Of a DNA stretch of 64,000 bases, positions 9,295 to 57,234 are shown piece by piece (within the stretch, counting starts at the first letter, position 1; each line of letters begins with the position of its first letter). The stretch is from Burkholderiales bacterium (GTDB lineage Bacteria; Pseudomonadota; Gammaproteobacteria; Burkholderiales; Usitatibacteraceae). The notes below the pieces were generated by a model. The model worked only from the letters and a program-made list of their open reading frames with translations, was not told the DNA's origin and ran no database searches. Location of the stretch: assembly GCA_043773745.1 (NCBI GenBank), contig JAYVEV010000132.1, positions 1,073-65,072 of the forward strand. The letters run 5' to 3'. The translations under genes and the position numbers were made by a program.

Positions 9295-9361
9295 TCTCCT
9301 GACGCATTGATGGCCTGACTCCAACGGGGTCCGGCCTTGATTGTTTTCGTCCGGAGGTTTT

Positions 9362-31761: not shown

Positions 31762-31876
31762 ATTTTTTTGGGCATAAAGCGCGTTAGCAGCAGAAACCTC
31801 ATCATAATCGAAAGCGCTGTCTATAATGAACACTTATAGCCGCAAAATCACAAGCAAGATCTCCATTTAAAACGCC

Positions 31877-40204: not shown

Positions 40205-40652
40205 CGTCGCGCATCGCGTGGTCGCTGCTTGTGCTGTTGGCATGGCGTTCAAATTTTTGAATGGCACGCCGATCCTGCTTGGTAGGCCGACCTTTGAATA
40301 ACGGTGGCGGCATATTGCGCTGCTCGTGCAGAATCTGTTCGCGCGCAGCGATGCTTTCCACGGTCTCTTCGTAGAAACCGCGCGCCACCACCGCCGATGC
40401 GCGTTTTTCGATAATACTTTTTACGACCAAATGAAATACATAGGGCGGTTTGCGTAATAGCAGCACATCACTGACTTTAATGGTTTTGGCAGGCTTGGCA
40501 CGTTCATTGTTGACATCGACATGACCCGCATTAATGGCGTCGATGGCGATTTGGCGGGTCTTGAAAAACCGTGCCGCCCAAAGCCATTTATCGAGCCGCA
40601 CTTGCGGCGCGGCGAGCTCAGTCGCCGCCTTGCTTTCAGCGCGACTTGGCAT
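40197..40652 (-). CDS. hslR: Hsp15-like ribosome-associated heat-shock protein (S4 RNA-binding domain)
   Basis: It contains VRLDKWLWAARFFKTRQIAIDAINAGHVDVNNERAKPAKTIKVSD, the Hsp15 S4 motif. Confidence 0.85.
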   Translation of the reverse strand: MPSRAESKAATELAAPQVRLDKWLWAARFFKTRQIAIDAINAGHVDVNNERAKPAKTIKVSDVLLLRKPPYVFHLVVKSIIEKRASAVVARGFYEETVESIAAREQILHEQRNMPPPLFKGRPTKQDRRAIQKFERHANSTSSDHAMRDDE

Positions 40653-41247
40653 TTGCCTTCGCGCTCACTCTTGCGCTTAATTTCACGCTGGCGATATTCA
40701 TCGGCAGCCCGGTGCCGGTGTCATATTCGGCGCCGCACAGCACGCCCATCCTGGCAATTTCTTCGGCTGCTTTGCGGCCCTTGTGCTGTTCATAAACCGC
40801 AAACATCGCACCCAATGCAAAATCGCGGCCCGAGCCAATCGCCCAGAAGCGATCAAACTCAAACACCTCACGCATCGAATACACTCCAAAAATACCGCTG
40901 GAGTTGACGATCAGCGCGGTTAATTGTGATGACTCGTAAGCATCATCGTCTTCTTCCTTAGTGTTCAGGAATGCCTCATCTTTGAGCAGCGGATGAATTT
41001 TGCGAAAGCTTTCGTAAATTTCCTCGCGGCCATAAAACTTGAATTCGGGATGCCGCTTCAACAGACTTTCCAGCACCAGCTGGTGCGCGGCGGAACCGGC
41101 AATACCAAAATAAGTATCGCCATGCTTGAGTAATTTTTCCGGTGCAGCATCGTGCACGCTGCCCAAACGGGTTGAGCCAAATGTGGTGAGCGTGTCACCC
41201 GCGATCGTGACCATCCCATCTTTTTTAACCACCACGATTGTTGTCAT
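40636..41247 (-). CDS. HslV-related Ntn-hydrolase, probable betaproteobacterial proteasome homolog (BPH)
   Basis: The N-terminus MTTIVVVKKDGMVTIAGDT parallels HslV TTIV.V...G.V.IAGDGQ, with the Thr nucleophile right after Met. The product is 203 aa. No hslU or other AAA+ gene is adjacent. It overlaps hslR by 17 nt. Confidence 0.65.
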   Translation of the reverse strand: MTTIVVVKKDGMVTIAGDTLTTFGSTRLGSVHDAAPEKLLKHGDTYFGIAGSAAHQLVLESLLKRHPEFKFYGREEIYESFRKIHPLLKDEAFLNTKEEDDDAYESSQLTALIVNSSGIFGVYSMREVFEFDRFWAIGSGRDFALGAMFAVYEQHKGRKAAEEIARMGVLCGAEYDTGTGLPMNIASVKLSARVSAKANAKSR

Positions 41248-41330
41248 CTCAGTATCCTTTTTATTACCAATTCGATTACGACCCTGATTGCAAACTGCCG
41301 AGCCCGCACTTAAGCGTAGCCCAAAATGGC

Positions 41331-41792
41331 TCAGCTTCGCAGCCGATCCCCAAAATTGACCATTAACACACCGGCAATCACCAGCATCGCACCGATGGCG
41401 CGCGGCGCGGATAATTCACGCTCAACCATCCCCAGTATGCCAACGCGGTCAAACACCAGCGATGCCAGAACCTGCCCGGCAATCACCAGGCTCAACATGG
41501 TTGCCACACCAATGCGCGGCGCCAATAGCGTGGTGCCAAAGACAAACATGGCACCCAGCAGTCCGCCCATCAACTGCCACGGCGCAACACTGGAAAGCTT
41601 GAGCACACTGCCCCATTTCTCGCCCGAGGCCACACACACCACCACCAAAATAACGGAGCCGACTAAAAAATTGATGAGCGCCGCAAACACAGCGCCGCTG
41701 CCCACCGCAACACGCAGCGAATTATTAATAATCGCCTGCAATGGAATCATGCAGCCAATAAAAAAAGCAAACAGCAGCAAAAGCGTATTCAT
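41331..41792 (-). CDS. DUF606 (YdcZ-like) DMT-superfamily membrane protein
   Basis: The product is 153 aa with 5 TM segments. The N-terminus (MNTLLLLFAFFIGCMIPLQAIINNSLR) is typical of the family. Confidence 0.7.
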   Translation of the reverse strand: MNTLLLLFAFFIGCMIPLQAIINNSLRVAVGSGAVFAALINFLVGSVILVVVCVASGEKWGSVLKLSSVAPWQLMGGLLGAMFVFGTTLLAPRIGVATMLSLVIAGQVLASLVFDRVGILGMVERELSAPRAIGAMLVIAGVLMVNFGDRLRS

Positions 41793-42001
41793 GGGTAATC
41801 CGGTTGGTTAAGGTAATTGCGGGCCGCAACGCCATGGGGAAATATCCGCAGACACATAGCTCTAGATGAATAGCATTAGACACATGGCTATATTATCTAC
41901 CCGTATCTGCGGCCAAAATCAATCGTAGGCCGTGATAGTAGCGCGAGAAATCAAGTCACAAGGCGGCCCGCAAGTCCGGCAGACCGATGTGTTCTGTTTG
42001 C

Positions 42002-42029
42002 GCCAACCGCCAAGGATATGGCGGCTGGC
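42002..42029 (-). terminator. GC-rich hairpin 7 nt downstream of the giant ORF stop (terminator-like, no U-tract)
   Basis: GCCAACCGCC / GGCGGCTGGC pair at 9 of 10 positions around an 8-nt loop. No T-run follows on the minus strand. Confidence 0.35.
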
Positions 42030-42035
42030 ATAATT

Positions 42036-45000
42036 TCAACAGCTAGTCAGAAAGAAGCGCGCAGCAGCCGGCGAGAAGTACCGGCATCCCTTGCCTGATA
42101 GCAGTACCTTGTCCGGACTTGACGGTGCATTGCTGTTAATAACCAGTTTCCCCGCTATCGTCCCCAGACTAATGGGACTGAACGTGATGCTGATCGTGCA
42201 GAAAGCATTGGGTGCCAGCACTGTCCCGCAGGTATTGGTCTGGGAATAACTACTGTCGGTTGTTATGCTGGCGAGATTGAGCGGCAGATTGCCTACGTTG
42301 GTCAGCGTGACGCGCTGAGCCGGTGCCAGGCTGCCGTAAATGACATTGCCAAAGCCCAGGGTGGTGGCACTCAGCTTCGCGATCGGCGACGGGATGGGCA
42401 TGGCCATACCGGTCACCGTGATCGCGTTGACTATGGCCGCATTGCTGGCATTGCTCGGGATGCTGACCACGGCCGTTTTGGTGGCCGGGTTGAGGCTTGT
42501 CGCAAGCTGGGGCGTAAAGCTGATATTGAAACTGCAGCTGGCATTGGCCGCCAATGTTGCCGCGCAGGTTCCGGATAATGCAAAGTCATTGGCGAGCGTA
42601 TTCGCTCCCGGTTGTACGATGATGGCATCCAAGTTCAGCGGCGCGTTGCCAGTGTTGGAAATCGTAATAACCTGCGGTGCGCTGACCGTACCGATCACTT
42701 GTTCGGTGAAACTCAAATTGCCACTCAACTTGATAATCGGCGCCGGTGCGGGCGTGCCATTGGCAGTGATGGCGACGGTCAACGGGTTCGGCGTGCTGGG
42801 CGCAGTGACATTATGGGTGATCGTGATACTGCCATTGACCGCACCCGTCACAGCAGGCGCAAACAGCACGCTGATGTGGCACTGTGCCAATGGTGCCAAT
42901 GTGGTGCCGCAGTTGGGCACGGTAATAGCCGGTATCGTGGTTGTTGGCGCACTGGCCCTGACCAGACCCGCGCCATTGATCACCACGCCGGACAATAATA
43001 AATTGGCGCTTCCGCCATTGGTGACAATGACGCTCTGAATGGCCGAGACTGAACCAACCGATTGATCGCCAAACGCAAGCACAGCCGGGCTGACTGCAAT
43101 ATTGGGGGCCGGGACAACCACACCACTACCAGACACAGACACCGCTACGGATGACGGTGGTGCATTGCTGCTGATTAACAGAAATGTGTTTGAGGAGCCC
43201 GTGCCAAGTGGGTTGAAGGTGACACTAATATTGCAGGTCGCGCCGACTGCCAAAGTCGCTGGGCTAAGCGGGCAGTTGGAACTAAACGCAAAGTCACCTT
43301 GTGATGAAATGTTGTTAATAGCCAGCGGCAACTGCCCGCTGGAGGTAATGGTGATATTTTGCGCGGCGCTGGATACACCAACATTCACCGCACCAAAACT
43401 CAAACCGCCCGTTGAAACGGTGATGCCTGGTGCCAGTGCTGGCGCGACGATTAGCGCGACGCTGGAGGTATTGGTATTGTTACCACCGGCACTCAGATTG
43501 CTAGGCACAACATTGATAGTGTAGCTGCCCGCGCTTGCAGCCCGTACTGCAAACGTAATGGTGCAACTACCCATCGCCGAAATACTGCCCATACCAAAGG
43601 TGATGCCGGTACCGCCAGTTACGATACTGGGAAAAGTGCCGCAGTTGTTGGACGGCGCAGGCGTAGCCTGTACCAGAAGTCCCGCGGGCATGGTCACTGA
43701 GCCACTGCTAATGAGTTGGGGGGAAGGCGCCGGCGTACTGAGAGTCAGTGTAACCTGCGCATTGATACCGGCGAGTACGCTGGCCGGCGATACGGCGACT
43801 GTCATGGTTGGATTGAGATTGATGCCCGTGCCACTGAGCGCAATGATATGGGGGCTGCTGACCGTATTATCCGTGATGGTCAACGTGCCCGTGGCAGCAC
43901 CCGCAACGGTCGGGGTAAAAGTCACGTTGATTGTGCAGGTATTGGCGGGAGGGCTTGCCGGGGGTACCGCCAATAATGACGTACTGCAGGATGTCGTTGT
44001 CGTGAACGGACCGGTCAAGGTAAATGCACCGCCAAAGATAAGGTCAGCCGTACCGGTATTGGTTAAGGTCAGTGCTTGCGGGGCACTGCTGGTGCCGACT
44101 CCCTGCCCGCTGAAGGTAAGTATGCCGGCGCTGGCGCTGAACAGCGGAGCGGCCAACGGCGTAATAACAACGGTATAGGTCGCTGACGCATTCGGCAGCG
44201 TCCCGTTGGCGGCCTGTACGGTGAAGCTATAGCTGCCCGCCAAGGTTGGTGTGCCGGACAAAACACCCGTTGTCGTATTCAGGCTCAATCCCGTTGGCAT
44301 GGTGCCTGTCGCAATGCTCCAGGTGATGGTAGGACTGCCGGCAGCGGTAAAGCTAAAGCTGTAGCCTTTGCCGATTGATCCACCGGGCGGCGTAGCGCTG
44401 GTAATGGCGGGCGAAGTAGCAAGACCCGGTGCGGCAATCAAACTGTTGAGCGAGAGCGCTTCAGCGCCGGATAATGCACGGCCATAAATCAGCAGATTAT
44501 TGGCCAGGCCGTTAAACGCTCCGCCGTTAGCGTAATTAAAGAATGAAAACACGCGATCGGACGGATTGGCGCTGGAATAGAACGCATCAAAATTGAATCC
44601 GCTTGGTAGCGAAATGGGCGTCTTCAACACACCATCAATATACAAATTGATTGTTAACTTGGAGACATCAACCACCACAATCGCCCGATGCCATGTATTC
44701 AACGTCATCGGTGCCCCGAGCGTGAATGAGCTCACACCATTATTCAACGTGATGCGCGGCTCGTACAGCGGGGTTACACCCAGTTCCATCGCGCGATAGC
44801 TTGTGCCGAAGCTGAGTATCGTGCCGTTAGTGGGCAGCGTGCTTAGATTAAAATCCACCATGAATGAAAATTGGCGATAGTTAACTCCTTCGCGCAAACC
44901 GGAGGAGTTGCTACCACTGTACACACCATTCATCGACAAACTATTGCTGGCGAATGTGGCGCTAGGGTTCAACGAAAATGAAGCGCCCCCCATCAAGTCG

Positions 45001-47450
45001 CTTGCCGCAACGGTAAACGGAAAATAAGCGAGGAGTCCGTTTTGCGACACTGCAGCGGGCAATACAAATGCAGGTGTTGCAGGCATCACGCTATTGGACA
45101 CCACTGAAGATGTGCTGTTGCCGACACCGTTATTCGCCACCACCGTAAAGGTATAGGCAGTACCGTTAGTCAGCCCGGTAACAATATGCGAAGTAATGGC
45201 GCTGCCTGCATTACTGTCATAACCGCCAGCCGGTGACGACACCACGGTGTACCCCGTATTGCTAAACCCAGTGTTGGTAGATGGCGAAAAAGACACCATC
45301 GCATAACCGTTTGCCGCATTTGCATTGGGTGCGCCCGGTGCAGAAGGTACGTTACCGGCAACCCCGGTTCCACTCAGGGTAATGACGCTCGTACTAGGGG
45401 TGGCATTAGATATCATAGTAAGCGTCGCGCTCGTCAGCCCCAGCACGGTCGGCTTGAATATCAGTTGAAGTGTGCAGGACGAGCCGGGGGAAAGAGTTTG
45501 CATGCCGGTGAGTGGAGCGCCATTAACATCAGCGCCAATGAAGCACCAGTTATAGGGAATCGGGCGAGTATCGTCGAAATAGGAATCGCGGAATAGCGCA
45601 GCATTCGAATGGGCCAGGCTGAATGTGAGATTTGCAGTTCCACTATTTTGAATGGTCACGGCTTGTACCGCGCTGGATCCACCGACCGCAGTGCTCGGGA
45701 AAGTTGTTGCGCCCGAAACTGTCACCGCAGGACCGGCTGCTGGCGCGCTAGCCGCTCCGTTCAGCGCAAAGACGTAAGAAACAGCCGGCTTCACGGTCTC
45801 GGGCAAAACTGGCGGCGATGCAGACGAAATCGGTCCCAATGTGAGTGTTGCCGTTTCAGTAACAGTGGGACTGGGTTGGTTATAAGTCACCACCACTTGG
45901 CAACTCGCACCTGCGGCCACTGACCCACACGTGCTGGAGGTCACGGTGAACGCTGCCGAATTGCTGGTTGGCAGTGGCACCATCACCGCCACGCTGTCGG
46001 CATTCGTAAATGTAAATGTTTGCGATTGAGTCCCGCCAGCCGCAATGGAAAAGTTCGAATATGTCGATGTGTAGATCAACGGCGTTACGGCCTGCACGGA
46101 AATTTCCGACGTTCCGCCAATCGACCCGACAGGCGTCGATGCGGTCATCGACGGGTGATAGGTCGGGGGCCCGCTGGTGATCATTTGAATGGCGGTATAC
46201 CCGACTCCGTCAGTGATCTTTTTGCCGGTCAACACATATTTCACGCCGATACCCAGGTTTGATGTGTCAATGTTGTTGGTGTTGTCGAACAGGTCGATGT
46301 CGTATGTTGTGCTCGCTGCGGAGCTAAGCGTGGCATCGACAGTCGTGGCGACGCTGGCGCCGCTCCATGCGTAATTCACCGCAGTAATGATCGGATAATT
46401 CTGTGCAAATGCGGGCGAACCCGGTTGCCCGCCATTGGCGTGATAGCAACCCGGACTGTTGAGAAGGGCGTTACTGTCTCGGACGTCGCCCGCCAATATA
46501 TCCCCCAGCGCAATTCCCGGATAGGCGCCGTTCGGAATACCGATATTGTTGGCGCGTATCGAGATGCCCTGCGGAGCGCATTCACTCGCGTAGACGCGGA
46601 TACCACCCTGCAAGTTGGCGTTGATGGTGTTGTCGTGGATATCGGCCGGCCCTCTCAACATGCCAATGCCGGCACCCAGATTACCTGCGATGAGATTGTT
46701 GGCGATGACCGTGTTTGGAACATAGATCTCAATGGCGTTGTTGCCGCCATTGGGCGACCCAATGGCGCCGGATGGCGAGACACCGATGTAGTTATTTACA
46801 ATCCGCGTTCCGGTCGCGCCGGAGACGAAGGGGAGAAGAATACCCACTGAATTAGAAGAAATCGTATTGCGTTCGGCCGCTAGCAAACCGCCGATGTTCG
46901 CCATGGACCCGCCGGTCATTTTCACGCCAAAACCATTGCTAGAGATTGAATTGCCGGTGATAGTAGCGCCGTTGCCGCCCGCAATTAGGACGCCGGGATT
47001 TCCCGCGAAGTTGTTGATAGCTAAGCCGCGTACCGCAATGTTATTTGCGTTAATCTCGAGACCCGGTCCCGCCATCCCCAATGATGCACCGTTTAACGTG
47101 ATGAGTATGTTGGCATTGTTACCCGTTAACTGCTTATTAGCAGTTGCAAGGGGTTGTGAATAGCCGTCGAGGGTGGTGTCGTTACAAGAGAGGGTCGGCA
47201 ATGGCGAATTGAGCGAAATGACGACCGGCCCTGGTACCGGAATATTGAAATTGATCGTTGCCGTGGATCCGCATAATCCACCCGCGTTGGCGTCAGTAAT
47301 GGCCTGTCGCAGTGAGCCGGGCCCGGAGTCGTTGATATTTGTAACAGTGGCCACAATCGACTGCGCGTATGCGCCGCCGACCATACCAAGCAACAGCGAC
47401 GATGCCAGCGTTGCAAGGAAGCATTTAATGATCATGAGCTGTTTTAACAT
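42036..47450 (-). CDS. Giant secreted multi-domain protein: CSLREA-like motif + right-handed beta-helix, Cys-pair Ig-like (choice-of-anchor-D/ASH-like) repeats, FN3, LamG, Ig-like
   Basis: It has a signal peptide (MLKQLMIIKCFLATLASSLLLGMVGGAYA|Q). Start candidates are 47450, 47462 or GTG at 47513. GSLRQAITDAN is followed by about 300 aa of beta-helix-like repeats (NN.I.GN..G...). An FN3-like segment spans nt 45081-45350, a LamG-like segment nt 44436-45041, and a He_PIG/cadherin-like Ig segment nt 44160-44417. At least 8 repeats of ~100 aa each carry two Cys, with the motif C-x-[ILVF]-x-[IV]-x-[FY]-x-P. Confidence 0.8.
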   Translation of the reverse strand: MLKQLMIIKCFLATLASSLLLGMVGGAYAQSIVATVTNINDSGPGSLRQAITDANAGGLCGSTATINFNIPVPGPVVISLNSPLPTLSCNDTTLDGYSQPLATANKQLTGNNANILITLNGASLGMAGPGLEINANNIAVRGLAINNFAGNPGVLIAGGNGATITGNSISSNGFGVKMTGGSMANIGGLLAAERNTISSNSVGILLPFVSGATGTRIVNNYIGVSPSGAIGSPNGGNNAIEIYVPNTVIANNLIAGNLGAGIGMLRGPADIHDNTINANLQGGIRVYASECAPQGISIRANNIGIPNGAYPGIALGDILAGDVRDSNALLNSPGCYHANGGQPGSPAFAQNYPIITAVNYAWSGASVATTVDATLSSAASTTYDIDLFDNTNNIDTSNLGIGVKYVLTGKKITDGVGYTAIQMITSGPPTYHPSMTASTPVGSIGGTSEISVQAVTPLIYTSTYSNFSIAAGGTQSQTFTFTNADSVAVMVPLPTSNSAAFTVTSSTCGSVAAGASCQVVVTYNQPSPTVTETATLTLGPISSASPPVLPETVKPAVSYVFALNGAASAPAAGPAVTVSGATTFPSTAVGGSSAVQAVTIQNSGTANLTFSLAHSNAALFRDSYFDDTRPIPYNWCFIGADVNGAPLTGMQTLSPGSSCTLQLIFKPTVLGLTSATLTMISNATPSTSVITLSGTGVAGNVPSAPGAPNANAANGYAMVSFSPSTNTGFSNTGYTVVSSPAGGYDSNAGSAITSHIVTGLTNGTAYTFTVVANNGVGNSTSSVVSNSVMPATPAFVLPAAVSQNGLLAYFPFTVAASDLMGGASFSLNPSATFASNSLSMNGVYSGSNSSGLREGVNYRQFSFMVDFNLSTLPTNGTILSFGTSYRAMELGVTPLYEPRITLNNGVSSFTLGAPMTLNTWHRAIVVVDVSKLTINLYIDGVLKTPISLPSGFNFDAFYSSANPSDRVFSFFNYANGGAFNGLANNLLIYGRALSGAEALSLNSLIAAPGLATSPAITSATPPGGSIGKGYSFSFTAAGSPTITWSIATGTMPTGLSLNTTTGVLSGTPTLAGSYSFTVQAANGTLPNASATYTVVITPLAAPLFSASAGILTFSGQGVGTSSAPQALTLTNTGTADLIFGGAFTLTGPFTTTTSCSTSLLAVPPASPPANTCTINVTFTPTVAGAATGTLTITDNTVSSPHIIALSGTGINLNPTMTVAVSPASVLAGINAQVTLTLSTPAPSPQLISSGSVTMPAGLLVQATPAPSNNCGTFPSIVTGGTGITFGMGSISAMGSCTITFAVRAASAGSYTINVVPSNLSAGGNNTNTSSVALIVAPALAPGITVSTGGLSFGAVNVGVSSAAQNITITSSGQLPLAINNISSQGDFAFSSNCPLSPATLAVGATCNISVTFNPLGTGSSNTFLLISSNAPPSSVAVSVSGSGVVVPAPNIAVSPAVLAFGDQSVGSVSAIQSVIVTNGGSANLLLSGVVINGAGLVRASAPTTTIPAITVPNCGTTLAPLAQCHISVLFAPAVTGAVNGSITITHNVTAPSTPNPLTVAITANGTPAPAPIIKLSGNLSFTEQVIGTVSAPQVITISNTGNAPLNLDAIIVQPGANTLANDFALSGTCAATLAANASCSFNISFTPQLATSLNPATKTAVVSIPSNASNAAIVNAITVTGMAMPIPSPIAKLSATTLGFGNVIYGSLAPAQRVTLTNVGNLPLNLASITTDSSYSQTNTCGTVLAPNAFCTISITFSPISLGTIAGKLVINSNAPSSPDKVLLSGKGCRYFSPAAARFFLTSC

Positions 47451-47600
47451 TTTCGCCACCATTCGCAATTTATGACTCGCTATTGAATTTCCCACTATCT
47501 GGCACCCAATCACCCCCCTTCAGACGAGGCTCCCCAAGCATTTATGCCTGCGAACCCTCGTCAAATGGCGAGTTTGCCCTTTTTATGCCGGGGCTCGCGC

Positions 47601-49955
47601 CTATCCGCCTCGCCGACGCAGCGCCACTGCGCCTGAAATACTGCTATTCAGGTTGTACATGAGGCCGGCACCACGTCCGGTCGCGCCCGTAAAGAAACCA
47701 TCGATGCTGCCGGTGAAACGTGTTTGCGTGCAACTCGGGGCGCAGGTGATATTGAGCGCCACGGGGGTTGGCAGGCCGGGCACGATGGCACCACCGGTGT
47801 TGACCGCGAAGGTCATATCACGGTAGATCGGCACACCGTTGGCCGAGGCATTCCAGGTTTGCCCGGCGATGGTGAAATTGACGCTGGTATCAACCGTGCG
47901 CGTGCTGAAATTGGCATTCAGCGTGGCGCTGTTCAGATTACCGACATTGCCTTGAAAATCGGTGGGATGGGTCGAGCCGACTACGTCATACGACGCACTA
48001 CCAGTTAGCGGCAGTGTCGTGGGCACCGATTGAGCGGCACTGAAGATGTAATGCTGGCTGCGTCCTGCTAGCCCAGTCTCTACACCGCCAATCGTTGCGC
48101 TGGCACCGGACCAGCGACCCCACGAAAGCCCGGTCGTGGCATCCACACCGGTATCAAATGCTTGGGATGTACCTATCGCATAATTGGTGCGGCCATTGAT
48201 GGTTCCATCGCCGCGCGCATACGGCGCAACGAACGAGATGGCGCGACCATTAGCATCGATATTTACTTCCTCGGCTCGATTAATGGTGGCATAGGTTTGC
48301 GAATAGCTCGACTGGGAAAGTGAGCTGGTCGAGTCGGAAATCAAACCATAGCGAAATGGAGCAGCCGTATTTTGTGCGGGGCCGCGAAACGCCAGCACAC
48401 CGCTGACCGATTGCACATTGGTTGCGGCACTACTGTCGACAAAGCCATAACCCAGAATCACGCCATTCAGCCTGCTGCCGACAAAGCTGCCCTCAATTTG
48501 TCCGAAAATATTGAAATTATTGTTGGAGTTTTGATTGGTCGTATTGTTGGTAACGGTAAGGCCAAATCCGGTGAACGTAAAAAAGCTGTTGAGTGAAAAC
48601 GGCACGTTCGTCGCCTGCAGCGTGTAATTGTTGGCGCCCGCCGAGGTGGGCATTGACAATGCAATAGTGGCGTTGAGCAAGCGCTGCGTGAAATTCACAC
48701 TAAGCAATGTTGAGGTGATGGCACCAGCAGCGCCAGACTGGTTAGTCGGGGCGGTGCCGCCCACTTGGGTGTAGATCACCGTGCCGGTGAGGACATCTGA
48801 CAAATAGGGCGGATAGCCGGAACTGCCATAAATGAAATGGGTGCTGCCGCCAGCGAGCGAGCCGAAACCCAGAGCCTCGCTGCTGGACGGCGCATTCCAA
48901 CGGCCGAGCGTAATCGAAGAATTGTCACCCAGGTCGATGGTGCTGGCATTGGCAATCATACCGCCAACAATAACGGCGGACGTGTTTGCACCGCCCGGCG
49001 CAGCGGTAAAGCTACGTAAATTGCCATTTTCCAATGTGATGCCGCTTGGCAACGCCTGACCGCTATAGGTATTGCCAGCGCCTGCCAATACGATATCGCG
49101 CAAACCGGAAGGATCCGGCGCCGCCAGAGTCTGTGTATTGATGATGTTAGTACCTGCGGTGGTGCCACCGCTCGTGCTGCCGGTGCCGGTAGTCGGTGTA
49201 TTTGTATTGGTCGGCACAATTGACGGCGGCGGTGTGGTGGTGCCGGTAGATTGAACTGCAACCTGCGCCGGCGTTTCCTTGCCCACCATCGTATTGGAAG
49301 CGGACAAAATTTGTGGTGGCGTGGGGATTTTTTCGGGAGGCCGTCCCAGCTCAATTTTGACCGTGTCATTCGGGAAGCTGATGAACGGCGCAAAGTTACT
49401 CCCGAGGCTGGTAATAATATGACTGCCCTCAATGGTGTGATTGATGGTCACCACCTTGCCGTCTTCTTCCTCGTGCGAAAGAATGTTGCCGGAGCCGCGA
49501 ATACCGACGGTGGCAACTCGGGTTTTCATCAGGTACTTGTCGCGATTGGCGCCACTCAAAAGTCCGGTGAAGGTGCGCATGGTGCCACGCAATAATGACA
49601 GGATGGCACCGTCCTGATCGCTCGCTGTTTTTTGATAGCGTTCAATCTTAAGCTGCGAATTTGAGCGCAATGATAATTTGGCCAGATCGATCATTGATAG
49701 CTGTGCCATACCGTCCGCACCCGCGATAATGACATCGCCCGGGTTCACTTCCATGCCACGGATGGCGGGTTTACGGCTTTCGCCACTTTGAATTTGCACA
49801 TTGCCCGCCACGTAGGTGAACTGACCGCTCGCCGCAATCGCCTGAATGGACAGCGAGCTGACAAGCGCCCCGAGGGCAGCGACAAGATAATGACGGAACG
49901 AAGTGTCCGCCGTCGTTTGCAGAATTGCGGTTGTTGTGGACAAGTTCTTGATCAT
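47601..49955 (-). CDS. Secreted FecR-domain protein with two tandem TbpB-like (handle/8-strand barrel-like) C-terminal modules
   Basis: It has a signal peptide without a lipobox. The FecR pattern spans nt ~49356-49823 (GNVQIQSG...PGDVIIAGADGMAQLSMIDLAKLSLRSNSQLKI...ATVGIRGSG). A Pro/Thr linker follows, then two mutually alignable modules at nt ~48381-48938 and ~47616-48143. Confidence 0.65.
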   Translation of the reverse strand: MIKNLSTTTAILQTTADTSFRHYLVAALGALVSSLSIQAIAASGQFTYVAGNVQIQSGESRKPAIRGMEVNPGDVIIAGADGMAQLSMIDLAKLSLRSNSQLKIERYQKTASDQDGAILSLLRGTMRTFTGLLSGANRDKYLMKTRVATVGIRGSGNILSHEEEDGKVVTINHTIEGSHIITSLGSNFAPFISFPNDTVKIELGRPPEKIPTPPQILSASNTMVGKETPAQVAVQSTGTTTPPPSIVPTNTNTPTTGTGSTSGGTTAGTNIINTQTLAAPDPSGLRDIVLAGAGNTYSGQALPSGITLENGNLRSFTAAPGGANTSAVIVGGMIANASTIDLGDNSSITLGRWNAPSSSEALGFGSLAGGSTHFIYGSSGYPPYLSDVLTGTVIYTQVGGTAPTNQSGAAGAITSTLLSVNFTQRLLNATIALSMPTSAGANNYTLQATNVPFSLNSFFTFTGFGLTVTNNTTNQNSNNNFNIFGQIEGSFVGSRLNGVILGYGFVDSSAATNVQSVSGVLAFRGPAQNTAAPFRYGLISDSTSSLSQSSYSQTYATINRAEEVNIDANGRAISFVAPYARGDGTINGRTNYAIGTSQAFDTGVDATTGLSWGRWSGASATIGGVETGLAGRSQHYIFSAAQSVPTTLPLTGSASYDVVGSTHPTDFQGNVGNLNSATLNANFSTRTVDTSVNFTIAGQTWNASANGVPIYRDMTFAVNTGGAIVPGLPTPVALNITCAPSCTQTRFTGSIDGFFTGATGRGAGLMYNLNSSISGAVALRRRGG

Positions 49956-49972
49956 GGTCTTGGTCCCAGAAA

Positions 49973-51367
49973 TTACATAAAGTCGCAGCGGATGGTCGAC
50001 GACACTTCGTGACGCGTATAATCATAAATAGCAATATTGGAATCGTTGCGCGAAGCAGCCCACTGGCCACGCATGCTGCAGCGATCCTGGAAGCGCCAAT
50101 TAACGCCCAGAGTCAAATCAGTCAGGCGGTCGCGGCCCAGCGCAACCGTGGTCGAGCGCGCAAAGGCGCTATCATCCCGGCGTTGGGCATGACCCAGCGT
50201 GCTAAACAGCGACAAGCGATCAGAGAGATTGTATTGTCCATAGACGCGAACACCCGCGGTTTTCTTGGATTTATCGGTGAGTCCGTCGGCTAGCTTGTGC
50301 TTGGCGGTATCCCGGCTGTAAAAGCCGGAAAGTTGCAGTAGCGGGGTGCCCGTTCCGGCAAACGTGGTCAACCAGCCCGCAGATGCCATGACGGAATCAA
50401 AATCCTCGGTCGGGTTTTTTAGGAACTTGGTTTGCCCGGCGTTCAGGCCCATGCTGAGTTGGTTGGCCGCATTCATGTTAATCCGCCATTCAGCGCCGCC
50501 GTTAGCGTTGCTACGGTCATTGGTCGGTTTAGGGGCGCCGGGGGCGTCGCCCTCTTGGGCATATCGGTTGAAAGCGGCATGCAAACGCAGTTGTTGGCTG
50601 CCACTATCCCAAATCGCGCCGGCCCGCGCATCACCGGAATAGGAATTGAATTCCGCCTGCTTACGATACCCGCGGGCACGCAGCTCGCCACCAGCATAGC
50701 CGCTCCATTTTTCGGAAATGGGCGTAATAAAATCGGCGCCGACTGCCGCACCCAGATAGGGCGCTTTGCGTTTGATTGAATTGCCAGTAGGGTTAACGCC
50801 GACTAAATTGAATGACTGCTGTACCGCCGCGCTGAAATCGGTCGGCACCCCGGTGAGATTGCTATCGTAGCCAAGCGCCATCTCGCCCCATGCATTGAAA
50901 ATACGTCGGGAGGCTTTGCGTCGCTCGGCAATAACATTTAGATATTTATCAATCGCGCCAAGGGCGGCAGCAGGCGGGTTTGATGCTTTCAGCTTGCGAA
51001 ATGTACCTTCGGCCAGATCAAGTGAACCGGCGTTGAAATAGGCGCGAGCCAAATCCAGCTGTGCACCGGCATTGCGCGGCTCGACAGCCAATACGCGCTC
51101 AAAGGCAATAATGGCGTCATCGATTTTGCCGCTATCAAGCGCCGCCACGCCCAGCAGATAGTCATATTCGGGATTGCCCGCGAGTTTGTCCTGCTCGGCG
51201 ACCAGCAACATATAGGCCTGCTTGGCATTCTGTGCCGTAATCAAGCGGCGCGCTTCGTCATACAAAGCAGGATTAGCAGCGGCATTTAAATGCGTCAGCA
51301 ATGAGACTAACGCAACGGCAATGATGGTTGCAGCGCTGGATTGGAACGATATTTTTGTTGGTCTCAT
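49973..51367 (-). CDS. TPR + outer-membrane beta-barrel protein, Slam/DUF560-like (type 11 secretion system translocon candidate)
   Basis: It has a signal peptide and about 3 TPRs (YDYLLGVAALDSGKIDDAIIAFERVLAVEPRNAGAQLDLARAYFNAGSLDLAEGTFRKL). A barrel-like region of ~300 aa starts at ..LGYDSNLT and ends SNIAIYDYTRHEVSSTIRCDFM. At 464 aa it matches Slam proteins in size. The candidate cargo gene lies 17 nt downstream. Confidence 0.6.
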   Translation of the reverse strand: MRPTKISFQSSAATIIAVALVSLLTHLNAAANPALYDEARRLITAQNAKQAYMLLVAEQDKLAGNPEYDYLLGVAALDSGKIDDAIIAFERVLAVEPRNAGAQLDLARAYFNAGSLDLAEGTFRKLKASNPPAAALGAIDKYLNVIAERRKASRRIFNAWGEMALGYDSNLTGVPTDFSAAVQQSFNLVGVNPTGNSIKRKAPYLGAAVGADFITPISEKWSGYAGGELRARGYRKQAEFNSYSGDARAGAIWDSGSQQLRLHAAFNRYAQEGDAPGAPKPTNDRSNANGGAEWRINMNAANQLSMGLNAGQTKFLKNPTEDFDSVMASAGWLTTFAGTGTPLLQLSGFYSRDTAKHKLADGLTDKSKKTAGVRVYGQYNLSDRLSLFSTLGHAQRRDDSAFARSTTVALGRDRLTDLTLGVNWRFQDRCSMRGQWAASRNDSNIAIYDYTRHEVSSTIRCDFM

Positions 51368-51833
51368 GGAAGTTCCATTTTTTTGATCATCACGCAGACT
51401 CCACCCCCCCAGCTGCGCTACTCATTTACCTGCTTGGTCTGAACACATTACCCTTATTACAAACCAAACAGTGGATGCTATGCCCACTGATGCTGGAAGT
51501 AAACATCCGAATCAGTCAGAAACTGTCCGCGACACCCCTCATTCAGGGTATATTTTTTTGCTGCACGAGTACCCCAACCCGTACTGACGGCTTGCTGGCT
51601 TAAGGAATCACAAAGCATCACAACAAGCTCTCTTTAGCAATAACCGCCACAGAGACAATGGCATGCGCGAACGAGGGCGCGGGTATTGGACGACTAATAG
51701 GCTCATACCGTTGACTTCAATCCCCCGCTTGTGCAGACTCATTGACCTAGCAGTATGCGCCTTGCTTAACCAGCTGGCGCATTAGTGATTACCGCAAAAT
51801 ACCTTACGTGCGGTTGAACATTCGGAGTTATTC

Positions 51834-53444
51834 ATGAAATTCGTTTCATCTATTAAATGCGATGCCTTGATATGGCGTATCGGTGGCCTCACTTGTGCCT
51901 TCGCATTTTCAATTTGGATATCACCATCGACTGCCGATGCCAAAACGCTGCGCTGGGCCAGTAGGGGCGATGTATTCACGATGGACCCGCACTCGCAAAA
52001 CAATGGTCTCACCAACGATATGTCTGACCATATTTATGAGCCGTTAGTCACCCGTGGCAAAACCATGGCGGTGGAACCCGCGCTGGCCGTCTCATGGTCA
52101 CAAATCAATCCCAACACCATGCGCTTCAAGCTGCGCGATAAAGTCGTGTTTCATGATGGCGCCGCGTTCACGGCGGACGATGTGGTGTTCTCGATCAGCC
52201 GCGCGCTTGAGAAAACCTCGGATTTTTCGGCCTATATGCAGGGCATCAAGGAAGCTCGAAAAATAGACGCCCTGACGGTTGATATCATCACTGACGGACC
52301 AACACCAACACTGCTTGACCAATTGACCGAAGTCCGACTCATGAATAAAGCCTGGGCGTTCAAATTCAAAGCGCAGCGCCCGCAAGACTACAAAAACAAG
52401 GAAGAAACCTATACGGCGCGTCACGCCAATGGTACCGGACCGTTCGCCCTGAAAAGCCGGGAGCCCGATGTAAAAACTGTCCTAGTTGCCAACCCGAAAT
52501 GGTGGGGGAAGATTGATCCGTCTGTCACGGAAGTGGTGTACACCCCAATCAAATCGGATGCCACCCGTATCTCCGCCCTGATTTCGGGCGAGCTTGACTT
52601 CGTCTTAGACCCGCCGGTGCAAGACCTCGCGAAGCTAAAAGAAAACAAAGCCATCAAAATTTTAGAAGGCAACGAAAACCGTACCCTTTTCCTCAACATG
52701 GACCAAGGCCGCGATGAATTGCTGTACGGATCAAAAGGCAAAAATCCATTCAAAGATGTGCGCGTTCGCCAGGCAATGCTACTGGCAATAGACATTAACG
52801 CCATCCATAAAACTGTGATGCGGGGACTGTCGCTACCCACCATGTCGATGATTGCACCGCAGGTACGTGGCTACACCAAGGAGATTGAAAACCGGCCGGC
52901 AGTCGATATTGCAAAAGCAAAGAAACTAATGGCCAGTGCGGGTTTTGCCAATGGTTTTGATGTCACCTTTGATTGCCCCAACGATCGCTACATAAATGAT
53001 ATTCAGATTTGCACGGCCATCACCGGCATGCTCGCCAAAATTGATATCCGCGCAAAATTAAACGCCATGCCGGTCACGCTGTATTTGCCCAAATTGCAAA
53101 AAGGCGACACCAGCATGTATTTATTGGGTTGGGGAGTGCCTACCTTTGACGCACTGTATACCCTGCAATCCATTTTACGCACCCATACTGCCGGTAGCGA
53201 CGGCAACTGGAATTTTTCGGGCTACTCCAACCCCAGGGTGGATGCCATTATCGAAAAACTCAAAACTGAAATTGATTTCAAGAAGCGGGCAGAATTGACC
53301 AAAGAAGCACTATTACTAGACCAAGCTGATGTCGGCCACATACCGCTGCATCATCAGGTGATTCCGTGGGCGATGCGCAGCAATATCACCGTGATTCACC
53401 GCGCCGACAACCGTATGCATGCCAAATGGGCGATTATTAAATGA
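51834..53444 (+). CDS. ABC transporter substrate-binding protein, family 5 (paralog 1 of tandem pair)
   Basis: It has a signal peptide and the blocks KTLRWASRGDVFTMDPH and FHDGAAFTADDVVFSISRA. The size is 536 aa. Confidence 0.88.
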   Translation: MKFVSSIKCDALIWRIGGLTCAFAFSIWISPSTADAKTLRWASRGDVFTMDPHSQNNGLTNDMSDHIYEPLVTRGKTMAVEPALAVSWSQINPNTMRFKLRDKVVFHDGAAFTADDVVFSISRALEKTSDFSAYMQGIKEARKIDALTVDIITDGPTPTLLDQLTEVRLMNKAWAFKFKAQRPQDYKNKEETYTARHANGTGPFALKSREPDVKTVLVANPKWWGKIDPSVTEVVYTPIKSDATRISALISGELDFVLDPPVQDLAKLKENKAIKILEGNENRTLFLNMDQGRDELLYGSKGKNPFKDVRVRQAMLLAIDINAIHKTVMRGLSLPTMSMIAPQVRGYTKEIENRPAVDIAKAKKLMASAGFANGFDVTFDCPNDRYINDIQICTAITGMLAKIDIRAKLNAMPVTLYLPKLQKGDTSMYLLGWGVPTFDALYTLQSILRTHTAGSDGNWNFSGYSNPRVDAIIEKLKTEIDFKKRAELTKEALLLDQADVGHIPLHHQVIPWAMRSNITVIHRADNRMHAKWAIIK

Positions 53445-53583: not shown

Positions 53584-53661
53584 ACATTTGTAACGGACGC
53601 CCCGCAGCAAGGGACTACTTTGTTGCTGCAATCAAGTTGAAATTTTTTGAATGGTGAAGTG

Positions 53662-55272
53662 ATGATGAATTTCAAAACAATGTTTTCCACCACCGTGCTG
53701 TTAATGGCGCTCACTATTTCCGCTGCCACCAATGCCGCTACCGCCGCGCCCCAAGCAAAAATATTGCGCTATGCAAGCCAGGACGATCCGCAAACGCTGG
53801 ATCCACATTCAGCCAACCTGACACCAACCAATCGTGTGATTTCGCAAATTTATGAGTCGCTCGTGGCGCGTGACAAAGACTTCAAAATTGTCCCCGGGTT
53901 GGCGCTTTGGTGGAGCGCCCCCGATAACAAAACCTGGCGTTTCAAGCTGCGCCCCAATGTGAAATTTCATGACGGCTCGCCATTCACCGCCGATGATGTG
54001 GTGTTCTCTGTCGAGCGTACTTTGCACCCACTGTCCCAACTAAAATCATCATTACAGGGCGTGGCCAGCGCCAAAAAAATTGACACTTTTACAGTAGATT
54101 TTGTGATGAAAGAGCCCAATCCGGTGCTGTTGAATCATCTGTATCAATTTCGCGTGATGTCCAAAAGCTGGGCCACCAAGAACAACGCGGTAGCACCTCA
54201 AAATTACAAATCTAACGAGGATACATTTTCCTCGCGAAACGCCAATGGCACCGGCCCATTCATATTGAAGCTTCGCCAGCCAGATGTGAAAACCGTGCTT
54301 ATCGCCAATCCCAACTGGTGGAACAACGCCAGCAAAGAAAAAGGCAATGTCACGCAGGTTGAAATGCTGCCGATCAAATCTAACGCGACGCGCGTGGCCG
54401 CGCTGCTGTCGGGCGAAATCGATTTCGTGCTTGATCCGCCCCAGCAGGACGTGGCTCGATTGAAGGCCGATCCCAATATCAGAATTGCGGAAGGAAACGA
54501 GGCGCGCATTCAGTATTTTGCGTTTGATCAATTCCGTGATGAGTTGCTGTACAGCAACGTAAAAGGTAAAAATCCGCTTAAAGATTTGCGCGTTCGCCAA
54601 GCGATTGGGTACGCCATTGATGTTAATGCCATCCGTCAAGTTGTGATGCGCGGCTTGTCGACCCCCACCGGCAGCATTGTGCCGCCTGGTACCCAAGGCT
54701 ATTCTAAAGAGGCCGATAAGCGCTTACTGTTTGACCGCGAAAAGGCCAAGACGCTACTGGCTGAAGCAGGTTATCCCATGGGCTTTTCAATCACGCTTGA
54801 TTGTGGTGCCAACCAGCCACCGGCCGATATTTGCCAAGCTGTTGCCGCCATGTTGACCCAGATTGGGATTCGCACCACACCGAATATCGTGCCGCTCGCC
54901 AATTATTTTTCGAAACTGCAGAAATTCGACACCAGTTTTTATCTATTGAGCTGGGGTGCAACCACTTTCGATTCGTTCTATACGCTGCAAGCACTTCTGA
55001 ACACCAATGCGGGCGAGCTATCAGCCAGCGGTGATTCGAATTATGGCCGCTATTCCAATCCCAAAATGGATGAATTGATCGGCAAAATTAAGTCCGAGTT
55101 TGATATGAAAAAGCGCGACGCCTGGATTCGCGAAGCGCTGCTTCTGAACCAAAATGATATCGCCACCCTGCCGCTGCATCAACCCGTGATACCGTGGGCC
55201 ATGCGCAAAAATATTGAGGCTTCCTTTGCGCCCAATAACATCGCGTATTTTTTCCGCTTCAAAATCAATTAA
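53662..55272 (+). CDS. ABC transporter substrate-binding protein, family 5 (paralog 2)
   Basis: I chose the ATG at 53662. It has a signal peptide (..ALTISAATNAATA) and the blocks KILRYASQDDPQTLDPH and FHDGSPFTADDVVFSVERT. Confidence 0.88.
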   Translation: MMNFKTMFSTTVLLMALTISAATNAATAAPQAKILRYASQDDPQTLDPHSANLTPTNRVISQIYESLVARDKDFKIVPGLALWWSAPDNKTWRFKLRPNVKFHDGSPFTADDVVFSVERTLHPLSQLKSSLQGVASAKKIDTFTVDFVMKEPNPVLLNHLYQFRVMSKSWATKNNAVAPQNYKSNEDTFSSRNANGTGPFILKLRQPDVKTVLIANPNWWNNASKEKGNVTQVEMLPIKSNATRVAALLSGEIDFVLDPPQQDVARLKADPNIRIAEGNEARIQYFAFDQFRDELLYSNVKGKNPLKDLRVRQAIGYAIDVNAIRQVVMRGLSTPTGSIVPPGTQGYSKEADKRLLFDREKAKTLLAEAGYPMGFSITLDCGANQPPADICQAVAAMLTQIGIRTTPNIVPLANYFSKLQKFDTSFYLLSWGATTFDSFYTLQALLNTNAGELSASGDSNYGRYSNPKMDELIGKIKSEFDMKKRDAWIREALLLNQNDIATLPLHQPVIPWAMRKNIEASFAPNNIAYFFRFKIN

Positions 55273-55313: not shown

Positions 55314-56300
55314 ATGCTCGCCTTCGTTATTCGCCGTTTGCTGCAAAGTGTCCTTGTGATGTTGGCCGTTGGCTTTATCGCATTCTCATTGTTCAACTTC
55401 ACGGGCGACCCGGTCGCGCTGATGCTGCCGCCAGAAGCCACGCAGGCGGATCGTGAGGAGGTGCGTAAATCGCTGGGGCTGGACGAGCCTTCTTATGTGC
55501 AGTTTGCCGTGTTTGTGAAAAACGCCGTGCAAGGCAATTTCGGTATCTCACTCCGTCTGGGCCGTCCCGTTTCGCAATTGCTGGTCGAGCGCCTGCCGGC
55601 CACGCTGGAGCTGGCAATGACTGCCGCAGTGCTGGGGCTGTTGATCGGCATACCGATGGGCATTCTGACGGCGTTAAAGCGGGATATCTGGCTGTCGAAA
55701 CTGTTCCTGACCGGTTCGCTGATTGGTGTGTCGCTACCCAATTTTTTAATCGGTATTTTTTTAATTCTGATCTTTGCTGTGTGGTTGGGATGGTTACCCT
55801 CGTTTGGGCGCGGAGATGTGACCCAGATTGGTTACTGGTCAACCGGCTTCCTGACCCAATCAGGCTTGAGAGCGCTGGTGTTGCCCGCCATTACGCTAGG
55901 ATTTTATCCGGTCACGCTGATCATGCGCTTGGTGCGCGCTGAAATGCTGGAAGTGCTGCGCACCGATTACATCAAATTTGCGCGCGCCCGCGGCTTGACC
56001 AATAACGCCGTGCATTTTGGCCACGCACTTAAAAATACCCTGGTACCCGTGATCACCATCACCGGCTTGCAGCTGGGTGGTTTGATTGCCTTTGCCATTA
56101 TTACTGAGACGGTATTTCAGTGGCCGGGAATGGGACTGCTGTTTATACAAGCAGTACAGTTTGCCGATATTCCGGTGATGGCTGCTTACCTGTGCTTAAT
56201 CGGTTTTATTTTTGTGAGTATTAATTTGATGGTGGATATGTTGTATTACGTGGTGGATCCGCGCCTGCGTGTTGACCGTGCTGCATCAGGAGGCCATTGA
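55314..56300 (+). CDS. ABC transporter permease (DppB/OppB-like)
   Basis: The N-terminus MLAFVIRRLLQSVLVMLAV is typical of DppB. It has 6 TM segments and an EAA-loop region (RTDYIKFARARGL). Confidence 0.9.
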   Translation: MLAFVIRRLLQSVLVMLAVGFIAFSLFNFTGDPVALMLPPEATQADREEVRKSLGLDEPSYVQFAVFVKNAVQGNFGISLRLGRPVSQLLVERLPATLELAMTAAVLGLLIGIPMGILTALKRDIWLSKLFLTGSLIGVSLPNFLIGIFLILIFAVWLGWLPSFGRGDVTQIGYWSTGFLTQSGLRALVLPAITLGFYPVTLIMRLVRAEMLEVLRTDYIKFARARGLTNNAVHFGHALKNTLVPVITITGLQLGGLIAFAIITETVFQWPGMGLLFIQAVQFADIPVMAAYLCLIGFIFVSINLMVDMLYYVVDPRLRVDRAASGGH

Positions 56301-56301
56301 T

Positions 56302-57216: not shown

Positions 57217-57234
57217 CGTTAAGCGCCGCACATC

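Follow-up and report, generated by a model that had tools for sequence, protein, structure and literature searches.

What do three large consecutive genes do together when the first appears to encode an outer-membrane barrel, the second a secreted protein with the fold of TbpB and the third a giant repeat protein? The question is raised by a locus of a Burkholderiales bacterium of the family Usitatibacteraceae (assembly GCA_043773745.1, contig JAYVEV010000132.1, positions 1,073 to 65,072 of the forward strand), found in a stretch of 64,000 nucleotides that was analyzed as a whole and is called the window here. An original prediction from the sequence had described open reading frame 1 (ORF1) as a Slam/DUF560-like translocon of the type 11 secretion system (T11SS), ORF2 as a FecR-containing, TbpB-like protein and ORF3 as a giant adhesin-like protein, and had proposed a surface display or secretion module in which ORF2 anchors, senses or pilots ORF3. 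We lean, by a small measure, towards a combined model in which the three genes are one surface-display module derived from type 11 (Slam) secretion. The idea of a display or secretion module is made considerably stronger by a feature that had gone unnoticed, a C-terminal tag bracketed by two cysteines that is shared by ORF3 and by the variable proteins encoded downstream in related loci.

ORF3 starts with a NosD-like beta-helix (E 1.5e-6) and carries choice-of-anchor D domains, seven stretches of which match NF012200 (E 3e-73, 243 bits against a cut-off of 45). Other domains are immunoglobulin (Ig)-like, fn3, He_PIG and LamG-like, with additional matches to Cep192_D4, HYDIN, ASH and DUF1573. 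The counterparts found in the same position of related loci vary in size from 560 to 2600 amino acids (aa) and their N-terminal parts are unrelated; what they have in common with ORF3 is the last choice-of-anchor D domain and a tail of 16 residues. The protein of the window ends in ...LLSGKGCRYFSPAAARFFLTSC, and its last 17 residues are identical in proteins of three other loci (L002, L003 and L032). The consensus of the tag is G-x-G-C-R-Φ-F-S-x4-R-x5-C. Among 72 distinct variants, the spacing of 14 residues between the cysteines and the Arg at position +1 are each kept in 63, the Arg at position -7 from the last Cys in 67, position +3 is Phe in 50 and position +4 Ser in 47, while the last Cys is followed by zero to three residues.

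A scan of the related loci with a pattern for the tail matched 48 of the 2505 complete ORFs. Forty-five of the matches are genuine, all of them on the strand of the ORF1/ORF2 pair, and the three spurious ones come from the approximately 2460 other ORFs. A search among cluster representatives with a query of 50 aa from the tail drew mostly generic choice-of-anchor D strands, the informative matches being those that reached their own C-terminus; at least 33 of the 150 best tail matches bear the tag at the extreme C-terminus. The N-terminal regions of tagged proteins are made of beta-helices, YVTN propellers, LamG, fn3 and He_PIG domains. Choice-of-anchor D relatives without the tag close in other tails, such as P0244, the end of which we read as a C-terminal domain of the type 9 secretion system (T9SS). 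Diverse N-termini joined to a constant tail are the signature of a sorting signal. Compared with NCBIfam and Pfam, the tail had no match at E <= 10 and corresponds to no known anchor (PEP-CTERM, T9SS, LPXTG, etc.), and it has neither a hydrophobic span nor a basic tail. The earlier statement that ORF3 lacks a known sorting signal is thus right as far as described families go but incomplete, as a conserved and undescribed signal-like element is present.

The tag is also conserved in a way that the sequence before it is not. Among four lineages in which ORF2 retains an identity of only about 50%, the codons of the tag, 17 in number, differ at 10 to 12 synonymous and at no nonsynonymous places, whereas the preceding 32 codons show 11 to 17 nonsynonymous differences. 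Judged by these codon counts, the tag peptide is under strong purifying selection; recent horizontal transfer as the source of the identical tags is excluded by the many synonymous differences. The loop between the two cysteines is probably closed by a disulfide. Many tagged proteins have a second motif right after the signal peptide, (A/V)-x-C-Q-F-N/I-x3-G-x-W-N/D-x-P/A-x-N-W-x2-C, which also contains two cysteines and is followed by a beta-helix-like region (P0252, P0268, P0283, P0287, P0292, P0318, P0329, P0337 and the gene at 12420-16409 of L002); ORF3 of the window does not have it.

The tagged genes keep company with the other two. On long contigs, five homologues of ORF2 were examined, and a protein of 470 to 490 aa with tetratricopeptide repeats (TPR) was encoded immediately upstream in all five, with one to four giant Ig-repeat proteins downstream in four. 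A synteny scan limited to one genome per species added 80 further loci, distributed among Burkholderiales, Usitatibacter/Usitatibacteraceae, Rhodocyclaceae and Nitrosomonadaceae, the exceptions being two bins labelled Lysobacter and one assigned only to Pseudomonadota. One of the genomes is complete (CP019169.1, Betaproteobacteria bacterium GR16-43); the sequence search retrieved ORF2 homologues only from Betaproteobacteria known through metagenome-assembled genomes (MAGs). Of the 68 loci with enough upstream sequence, 67 have an ORF1 orthologue immediately 5' of ORF2. The remaining one, L059 from Usitatibacter, has two tandem ORF1/ORF2 pairs (1657-14941) with a tagged gene between them (5282-8602). 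Among 48 informative loci, the strict tag pattern finds a tagged neighbor of the pair in at least 41, and a relaxed pattern adds L038; the contigs of another 37 loci end too early to be counted. Tagged genes, one to four per locus, are mostly downstream of the pair and in six loci upstream. The reverse look-up gave the same picture, with an ORF2 orthologue alongside the tagged gene in four of four informative contigs, and an ORF1 orthologue too where the sequence allows. The contigs of P0266 and P0319 begin at the tagged gene, and their downstream context is like that of loci holding the pair. The arrangement therefore recurs in dozens of independent genomes and is not due to chance, which bears out the co-occurrence of the trio anticipated for related genomes and extends it across Betaproteobacteria. 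Genes for TonB-dependent receptors or for metal or heme uptake were found neither in the flanks of the window nor in the gene lists of the related loci, in agreement with the earlier remark that no such receptor gene is adjacent.

Two other elements recur near the pair in some relatives but not in the window. The first, known from 14 related loci, is a glycosyltransferase-like gene coding for about 415 to 430 aa, with a faint EryCIII-like_C match, that adjoins the pair and usually separates ORF2 from the tagged gene (L001 at 12407-13690, L013, L046, L050, L055, L064, L070, L071, L073, L075, L076, L077, L081 and L084); its product might glycosylate the clients or the Pro/Thr-rich linker of ORF2. 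The second, limited to one clade, is a block of genes located 8 to 10 kb upstream of the pair. Its products are a CHASE2 sensor, which is either a cyclase or a histidine kinase, an uncharacterized protein with a length of 282 aa, and a Peptidase_C14 protein that is caspase-like and contains MORN repeats (L005 at 1-4242, L006 at 1-1392, L002, L020, L023, L024, L025 and L036).

Conservation separates the pair from the proteins that accompany it. Across 62 loci, the mean identity to the proteins of the window is 55.7% for ORF1 and 50.7% for ORF2, and the divergence of the two is correlated (r = 0.90); the tagged proteins are conserved only at the C-terminal end. From these patterns we infer that ORF1 and ORF2 would be a conserved apparatus and the tagged proteins its variable clients. 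ORF2 has 302 homologues, all of about 780 aa, that databases label only as "FecR domain-containing protein", and ORF1 belongs to a family with 1369 matches at E <= 0.001, the best 120 of which are 55 to 93% identical to it.

The AlphaFold2 model of ORF1 (predicted local distance difference test, pLDDT, of 80) has paired helices at residues 33-154 and then exactly 14 strands at residues 156-462. The helical part matches TPR_16 (E 1e-10) and TPR_19 (E 2e-9) in Pfam and is highly conserved in the family alignment. With Foldseek against the PDB, the 14-strand barrels OmpG and CymA come at the top, followed by the TPR-plus-barrel exporters BcsC and PelBC. TPR helices joined to a 14-strand barrel are the layout that defines Slam (PMC5449769), and the modelled fold makes ORF1 a candidate Slam/T11SS-like translocon, as had been predicted. 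At the level of sequence it looks like a member of a broad barrel superfamily, with membership in DUF560 near threshold. A precomputed PF04575 (SlipAM/DUF560) match is present on many ORF1 orthologues, and when 26 of them were scanned singly, 18 matched SlipAM (best E 1.3e-6) and 13 TPR_Slam, both at E < 0.01. However, all 26 also matched EpsL (best E 5.8e-9) and 17 matched TIGR03016, both from NCBIfam; this similarity is limited to the last 100 residues or so and reaches 15 to 35 bits against cut-offs of 90 to 275. EpsL and TIGR03016 are outer-membrane proteins associated with PEP-CTERM systems. No exosortase gene appeared in the gene lists of the related loci examined. An exopolysaccharide porin like EpsL, BcsC or PgaA is not favored for ORF1, considering that the locus has no polysaccharide genes and that ORF1 is partnered by a protein of the TbpB fold. 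ORF1 has two invariant cysteines, a residue seldom seen in outer-membrane barrels: Cys430 at the start of strand 13 and Cys461 three residues from the C-terminus.

The partner, ORF2, consists of a signal peptide ending in ...IQAIA/ASGQ, a FecR-type beta domain, a disordered linker rich in Pro, Thr and Gly, and two lobes, the second of which closes the protein with ...GAVALRRRGG. Its only Pfam match is the predicted FecR domain (PF04773, residues 75-167, 24.2 bits against a cut-off of 24). The AlphaFold2 model (pLDDT 79.7) is all-beta from residue 286 to 784, with about eight strands per barrel by DSSP, and its C-terminal 500 residues or so take the form of a TbpB-type bilobe. The top 11 Foldseek matches in the PDB are all TbpB (E 1.9e-8 for 4o3y to 1e-6, over some 540 to 600 aligned columns). 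Next come matches of the N-terminal domain to the C-terminal signaling domain of PupR (6ovk_R, E 3e-5) and to an anti-sigma protein (4m0n, E 5e-5), with TM scores of about 0.5, which agree with the Pfam assignment. They are followed by hemophilin (7re4, E 1e-4) and then by NHBA, also a Slam/T11SS cargo, and fHbp. The barrel matches of the lobes with a probability near 1 (TbpB, hemophilin, NHBA and fHbp) are without exception proteins of the TbpB fold that are exposed at the surface or secreted. Lobe 1 and lobe 2 are homologous (hhalign probability 98.9%, E 3.5e-17, 210 columns) and thus originated by internal duplication; in the alignment, the two C-terminal modules share LTGxAxY...G...L.ANF..RT...GS.DGFF.G..G.GAG..Y......GA.AF.RRGG. 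A two-lobed architecture has been described for TbpB and LbpB (PMC5449769). The sole hint from a family profile is that of the last barrel to NF041636, "Slam-dependent surface lipoprotein" (15.8 bits, E 0.013, cut-off 80), and Pfam searches with the isolated barrels returned nothing at E <= 10, neither TbpBBD (PF01298) nor lipoprotein C. The TbpB-like character predicted for ORF2 is therefore upheld by fold and not by a PF01298 match.

ORF2 has no Cys in residues 1-60 and therefore no lipobox, as had been noted before. Hemophilin is described in the literature as a non-lipidated T11SS cargo, and so the missing lipobox excludes only the lipoprotein subclass of cargo for ORF2. Both hemophilin and fHbp are named as Slam/T11SS cargo (PMC5449769 among others). 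Within ORF2, mean identity among 33 homologues is highest in the FecR domain and in barrel 2, at 65% for each, and falls to 46% in handle 1 and to 26% in the linker, which are the least conserved, a distribution that fits fixed contacts at both ends of the protein. In its N-terminal half, the FecR domain weakly resembles the retention module of LapA (NF033682, 20 bits) and the anchoring domain of MpIBP (5ix9, TM score 0.72 over 61 columns). ORF2 has its own invariant pair of cysteines, Cys738 and Cys742, in a motif ITCxPxC located in a loop of the last barrel; together with the invariant pair of ORF1 and the two cysteines of the tag, they could point to disulfide chemistry in the system.

How might these parts work together? 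That ORF1 and ORF2 form a Slam-type pair is the component of the model in which we have good confidence. ORF1 would be the outer-membrane translocon, with its TPR helices in the periplasm and its 14 strands in the membrane, and ORF2 its obligate and equally conserved partner. Since an eight-strand barrel at the C-terminus of a protein encoded beside a Slam-like gene is the hallmark of T11SS cargo, the lobes of ORF2 are most likely delivered to the surface by ORF1; they would pass through it or alongside it, with barrel 640-784 as a candidate for the domain that targets them to the ORF1 barrel, by analogy with known Slam cargo. To our knowledge, the FecR domain is periplasmic in every context described. 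Considering this, and the weak likeness to the retention modules of LapA and MpIBP, we propose for ORF2 a FecR domain that remains periplasmic and acts as a stopper, retention or docking module, with the linker of 60 residues crossing the outer membrane.

That the tagged proteins depend on this pair is probable, if less firmly so than the pairing itself. ORF3 and its counterparts would be the clients, and the machinery formed by ORF1 and ORF2 would recognize the loop of the tag. TbpB-like lobes are ligand-binding platforms in all relatives that we know of, and a loop bracketed by cysteines without a hydrophobic span is more like a folded epitope for a receptor than like a membrane anchor; the most likely site for the tag would therefore be one of the TbpB-like lobes of ORF2, by which the giant protein would be kept at the surface of the cell. 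Alternatively, the loop may be a signal for export by way of ORF1. In its complete form the proposal is a sorting system of the outer membrane that has gone unrecognized, in which a C-terminal Cys loop marks giant proteins made of Ig repeats, beta-helices or propellers for capture or export by a Slam-like barrel and a FecR-held, TbpB-like bilobed adaptor. This complete form we put forward only tentatively. If it is true, what is "cargo" in type 11 secretion has become machinery here, and choice-of-anchor proteins gain a new "anchor".

Several observations weigh against the model as a whole. ORF1 itself scores 19.6 bits with SlipAM/DUF560 (PF04575), below the cut-off of 22 (E 7e-4, residues 208-322 only), and 16 bits against a cut-off of 35 with TPR_Slam (PF24575), so that its sequence match to DUF560 stays near the threshold. 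EpsL and TIGR03016 fit its barrel at least as well as DUF560 does, all of them far below their cut-offs, ORF1 reaching 26 bits against 275 and 15.5 against 91 and thus no full-length match at threshold. The ORF1 profile retrieved only TPR proteins from the sequences of the PDB, and no Slam structure turned up there by sequence or by fold; hence, the fold comparison cannot separate Slam from other 14-strand barrels. The likeness of ORF2 to TbpB is one of fold, as a profile of 34 ORF2 sequences found nothing among PDB chains at E <= 10, and it rests on one AlphaFold model built from those 34 sequences. The Sec signals of the three proteins were judged by eye. A 14-strand barrel is narrow for the export of proteins of 1800 residues, about six informative loci have no tagged gene within the available sequence, and the adjacency of the genes need not mean that either ORF1 or ORF2 reads the tag.

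The loci without a visible tagged gene would fit an ordinary type 11 pair, in which ORF1 exports ORF2 as the final cargo and ORF2 does a ligand-binding job of its own, such as the capture of a metal or nutrient in the manner of TbpB or hemophilin. The giant proteins would then be neighbors that leave the cell by another route, for example type 2 secretion, and their tail would do no more than cap the final Ig domain. The Slam-like layout of ORF1, the fold of ORF2 and the precedent of non-lipidated cargo are all compatible with this explanation, and a Slam gene adjoining its cargo gene is a known pattern (PMC5449769). However, the tagged genes track the pair through changes in gene order, every look-up from the tag that could be judged led back to the pair, and no receptor or other uptake gene accompanies ORF2. 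Besides, ORF2 is as conserved as ORF1 and far more so than the N-termini of the tagged proteins, which suggests a part of a machine, and a structural cap would not need to be free of nonsynonymous changes while the preceding domain varies freely. We consider the ordinary pair unlikely. Equally unlikely, in our opinion, is that ORF1 is the translocon of the giants themselves. The Cys loop would then be an export signal read by the TPR domain or barrel of ORF1, and ORF2 an accessory of the periplasm or outer membrane (plug, pilot or chaperone) rather than a surface receptor, the clients being threaded unfolded, C-terminus first, and folding outside as in type 5 secretion. TPR domains bind C-terminal peptides, that of ORF1 is highly conserved, and the distant relationship of its barrel to EpsL and TIGR03016, which belong to another system based on C-terminal tags, lends some support to an export signal, although those matches are as short and low-scoring as described above. 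The beta-helices and Ig repeats of the clients can fold stepwise outside the cell, and the invariant cysteine pairs of ORF1, ORF2 and the tag can also be counted in its favor. What speaks against it, apart from the narrow lumen of a 14-strand barrel, is that a loop closed by a putative disulfide suggests a folded epitope rather than a signal for unfolded threading, and that none of the near-certain fold matches of the ORF2 lobes is periplasmic.

The original prediction had also allowed for a sensing role, in which the FecR domain would relay an event at the surface as in FecR/PupR signaling or in operons of LysM-FecR proteins with CHASE2 kinases, making the locus a sensor. The domain itself is there by Pfam at threshold and by its PupR-like fold, FecR-domain proteins pair with CHASE2 histidine kinases in Burkholderia (PMC5192318), and the upstream CHASE2 genes mentioned above are found in some related loci. 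But ORF2 has neither a cytoplasmic anti-sigma domain nor a membrane-spanning segment beyond the signal, which the FecR domain follows directly, and no gene for an extracytoplasmic function (ECF) sigma factor, a TonB-dependent transducer or a kinase is adjacent in the window or in the listed related loci. The CHASE2 block is confined to five to seven loci of one clade, 8 to 10 kb away with metabolic genes intervening. We therefore rejected this role, which appears highly improbable, and retain the display module, in which ORF2 would act as an adaptor.

The features of the locus are collected in Table 1.

Table 1. Position and composition of the three genes, their domains and the adjoining noncoding elements (coordinates in the window)
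Feature	Position	Strand	Description
ORF1	49973-51367	minus	464 aa, ATG start; Sec-type signal, predicted periplasmic TPR domain (~aa 33-154), predicted 14-strand outer-membrane barrel (aa 156-462)
ORF2	47601-49955	minus	784 aa, ATG start; signal 1-42, FecR-type beta domain 45-210, disordered Pro/Thr/Gly linker 222-280, lobe 1 283-532, lobe 2 533-784
ORF2 lobe 1			handle 283-379, barrel 380-532
ORF2 lobe 2			handle 533-639, barrel 640-784
ORF2 FecR/PupR-type domain	49325-49823	minus	aa 45-210
ORF2 C-terminal eight-strand barrel	47604-48038	minus	aa 640-784
ORF3	42036-47450	minus	1804 aa, ATG start; alternative upstream GTG start gives 42036-47513
ORF3 tag	42039-42098	minus	...SGKG-CRYFSPAAARFFLTSC-COOH; two Cys bracket 14 residues at the extreme C-terminus
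Noncoding spacer	51368-51833		466 bp, between ORF1 and the divergent SBP_bac_5 gene
Hairpin directly 3' of the ORF3 stop	42001-42030	minus	12-bp stem, no U tract

The three genes are located where they had been reported, with a gap of 17 nt between ORF1 and ORF2 (49956-49972) and of 150 nt between ORF2 and ORF3, or 87 nt if the GTG start is used; the start at 47450 is favored by the public gene call and by a close homologue, P0269, that begins with MLKQ. All three proteins begin with residues that are first basic, next hydrophobic and finally small, as is typical of a Sec signal and in accordance with the signal peptides claimed earlier; none has a Cys lipobox at its N-terminus, and in the AlphaFold models these ends are unstructured or a lone helix. 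The spacer upstream of ORF1 is one base pair shorter than the 467 bp first given and is presumably the promoter region of the three-gene unit. A consensus scan found no sigma-70-like site in it, although this promoter/terminator scan performed no better than on shuffled sequence. Within the spacer, a terminator-like hairpin with a T-rich tail (51489-51469, minus strand, like ORF1) precedes the start of ORF1 by about 100 nt. The hairpin downstream of ORF3, noted earlier as well, has a folding energy of -27.8 kcal/mol (z = -3.4), with none of 200 shuffled sequences as stable, and likely marks the 3' end of the unit. Rfam gave no match over 41000-52500, and thus neither a riboswitch nor another known RNA upstream.

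The module is flanked by genes for unrelated housekeeping functions (YdcZ, a proteasome-like protein, an S4-domain protein, YceI and a peptide ATP-binding cassette [ABC] transporter). In most relatives (L002, L003, L005, L088 and L089) the module occupies one chromosomal site, bordered on one side by amine oxidase and enoyl-CoA hydratase genes and on the other by those of a Liv-type ABC transporter and an electron transfer flavoprotein (ETF). In the window it is found instead between the gene of the YdcZ exporter and the operon of the peptide ABC transporter (41331-53444), which indicates that the whole module moved in this lineage. The proteasome-like gene (40636-41247, minus strand) codes for 203 aa beginning with MTTIVV, matches the Proteasome subunit family (PF00227, E 2e-6) and adjoins an S4-domain, Hsp15-like gene; we take it to be a possible stand-alone bacterial proteasome homologue of the kind reported from Betaproteobacteria. 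The window also contains three paralogous genes for family-5 solute-binding proteins at 30151-31833 (minus), 51834-53444 (plus) and 53647-55272 (plus), two of which head a complete Dpp/Opp-type ABC operon with two permease and two ATPase genes (55314-59273, plus, is listed with the set).

Among known systems, the locus is best filed with type 11 secretion. Like Slam1 of Neisseria and NilB of Xenorhabdus, ORF1 has a Sec signal, a periplasmic TPR domain and a predicted 14-strand barrel, and its gene is directly upstream of that of a partner with the TbpB fold (PMC5449769). Unlike them, it remains below the Pfam threshold with a barrel equally near EpsL and TIGR03016, it is found in free-living Betaproteobacteria known from MAGs with no TonB-dependent receptor or metal-uptake genes nearby, and it is always paired with one highly conserved partner instead of a variable cargo. 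ORF2 resembles TbpB and LbpB in having two tandem homologous lobes, each with a beta-rich handle and an eight-strand barrel, and in adjoining a Slam-like gene; hemophilin, fHbp, HpuA and NHBA, compared likewise, are cargo of a single lobe. It differs from TbpB in the absence of a lipobox, of sequence similarity and of a TbpA-like receptor partner, and in being strongly conserved rather than hypervariable, and in place of the lipid anchor and "anchor peptide" of TbpB it carries a FecR-type domain and a linker rich in Pro and Thr.

The FecR domain links ORF2 to the FecR/PupR anti-sigma regulators by Pfam and by fold (6ovk and 4m0n), but ORF2 has no anti-sigma domain, membrane span or partner sigma factor or transducer, and the domain is at the N-terminus of a secreted protein. 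The topology proposed for ORF2, a folded N-terminal domain followed by a linker through an outer-membrane channel and by a surface part, is reminiscent of the retention modules of LapA- and MpIBP-type giant adhesins, N-terminal domains that are folded, remain periplasmic and block the channel in the outer membrane. Those adhesins depend on type 1 secretion, a TolC-like channel and release by LapG, and no such genes are present at the locus; the likeness is below any family threshold and serves as a lead. The tag, for its part, is comparable to the signals of PEP-CTERM/exosortase, T9SS, GlyGly-CTERM/rhombosortase and LPXTG systems, being a short conserved C-terminal element placed after choice-of-anchor D domains, on proteins with unrelated N-termini and linked to dedicated machinery. 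Unlike those signals, it has no hydrophobic helix or basic tail and no gene for a sortase-like enzyme at the locus, and the genes linked to it are those of a barrel and a TbpB-like protein.

T11SS have been tested experimentally only in cluster 1, mostly in animal-associated bacteria and with small cargo that binds heme, metals or host factors, while many environmental DUF560-like clusters are without known cargo (PMC8406197, PMC12282271). The cargo surveys describe some ten architectures unified by the C-terminal barrel and do not mention a FecR fusion (PMC8406197, PMC12282271); the "FecR" of the hemophilin and HphA literature refers to separate regulator genes. Our literature search found no description of the Cys-bracketed tag, and both the tag and its link to the pair seem to be without precedent. 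The locus thus offers a conserved environmental case with three new elements: a TbpB-fold protein with a FecR domain and no lipid anchor, its behavior as a conserved part of a machine, and a new tag on giant and diverse proteins. If the tag is read by the pair, this would explain the attachment or export of one class of choice-of-anchor proteins and extend the Slam mechanism to adhesin-like proteins of megadalton scale, and some 20 residues and two genes would constitute a simple, transplantable display tag.

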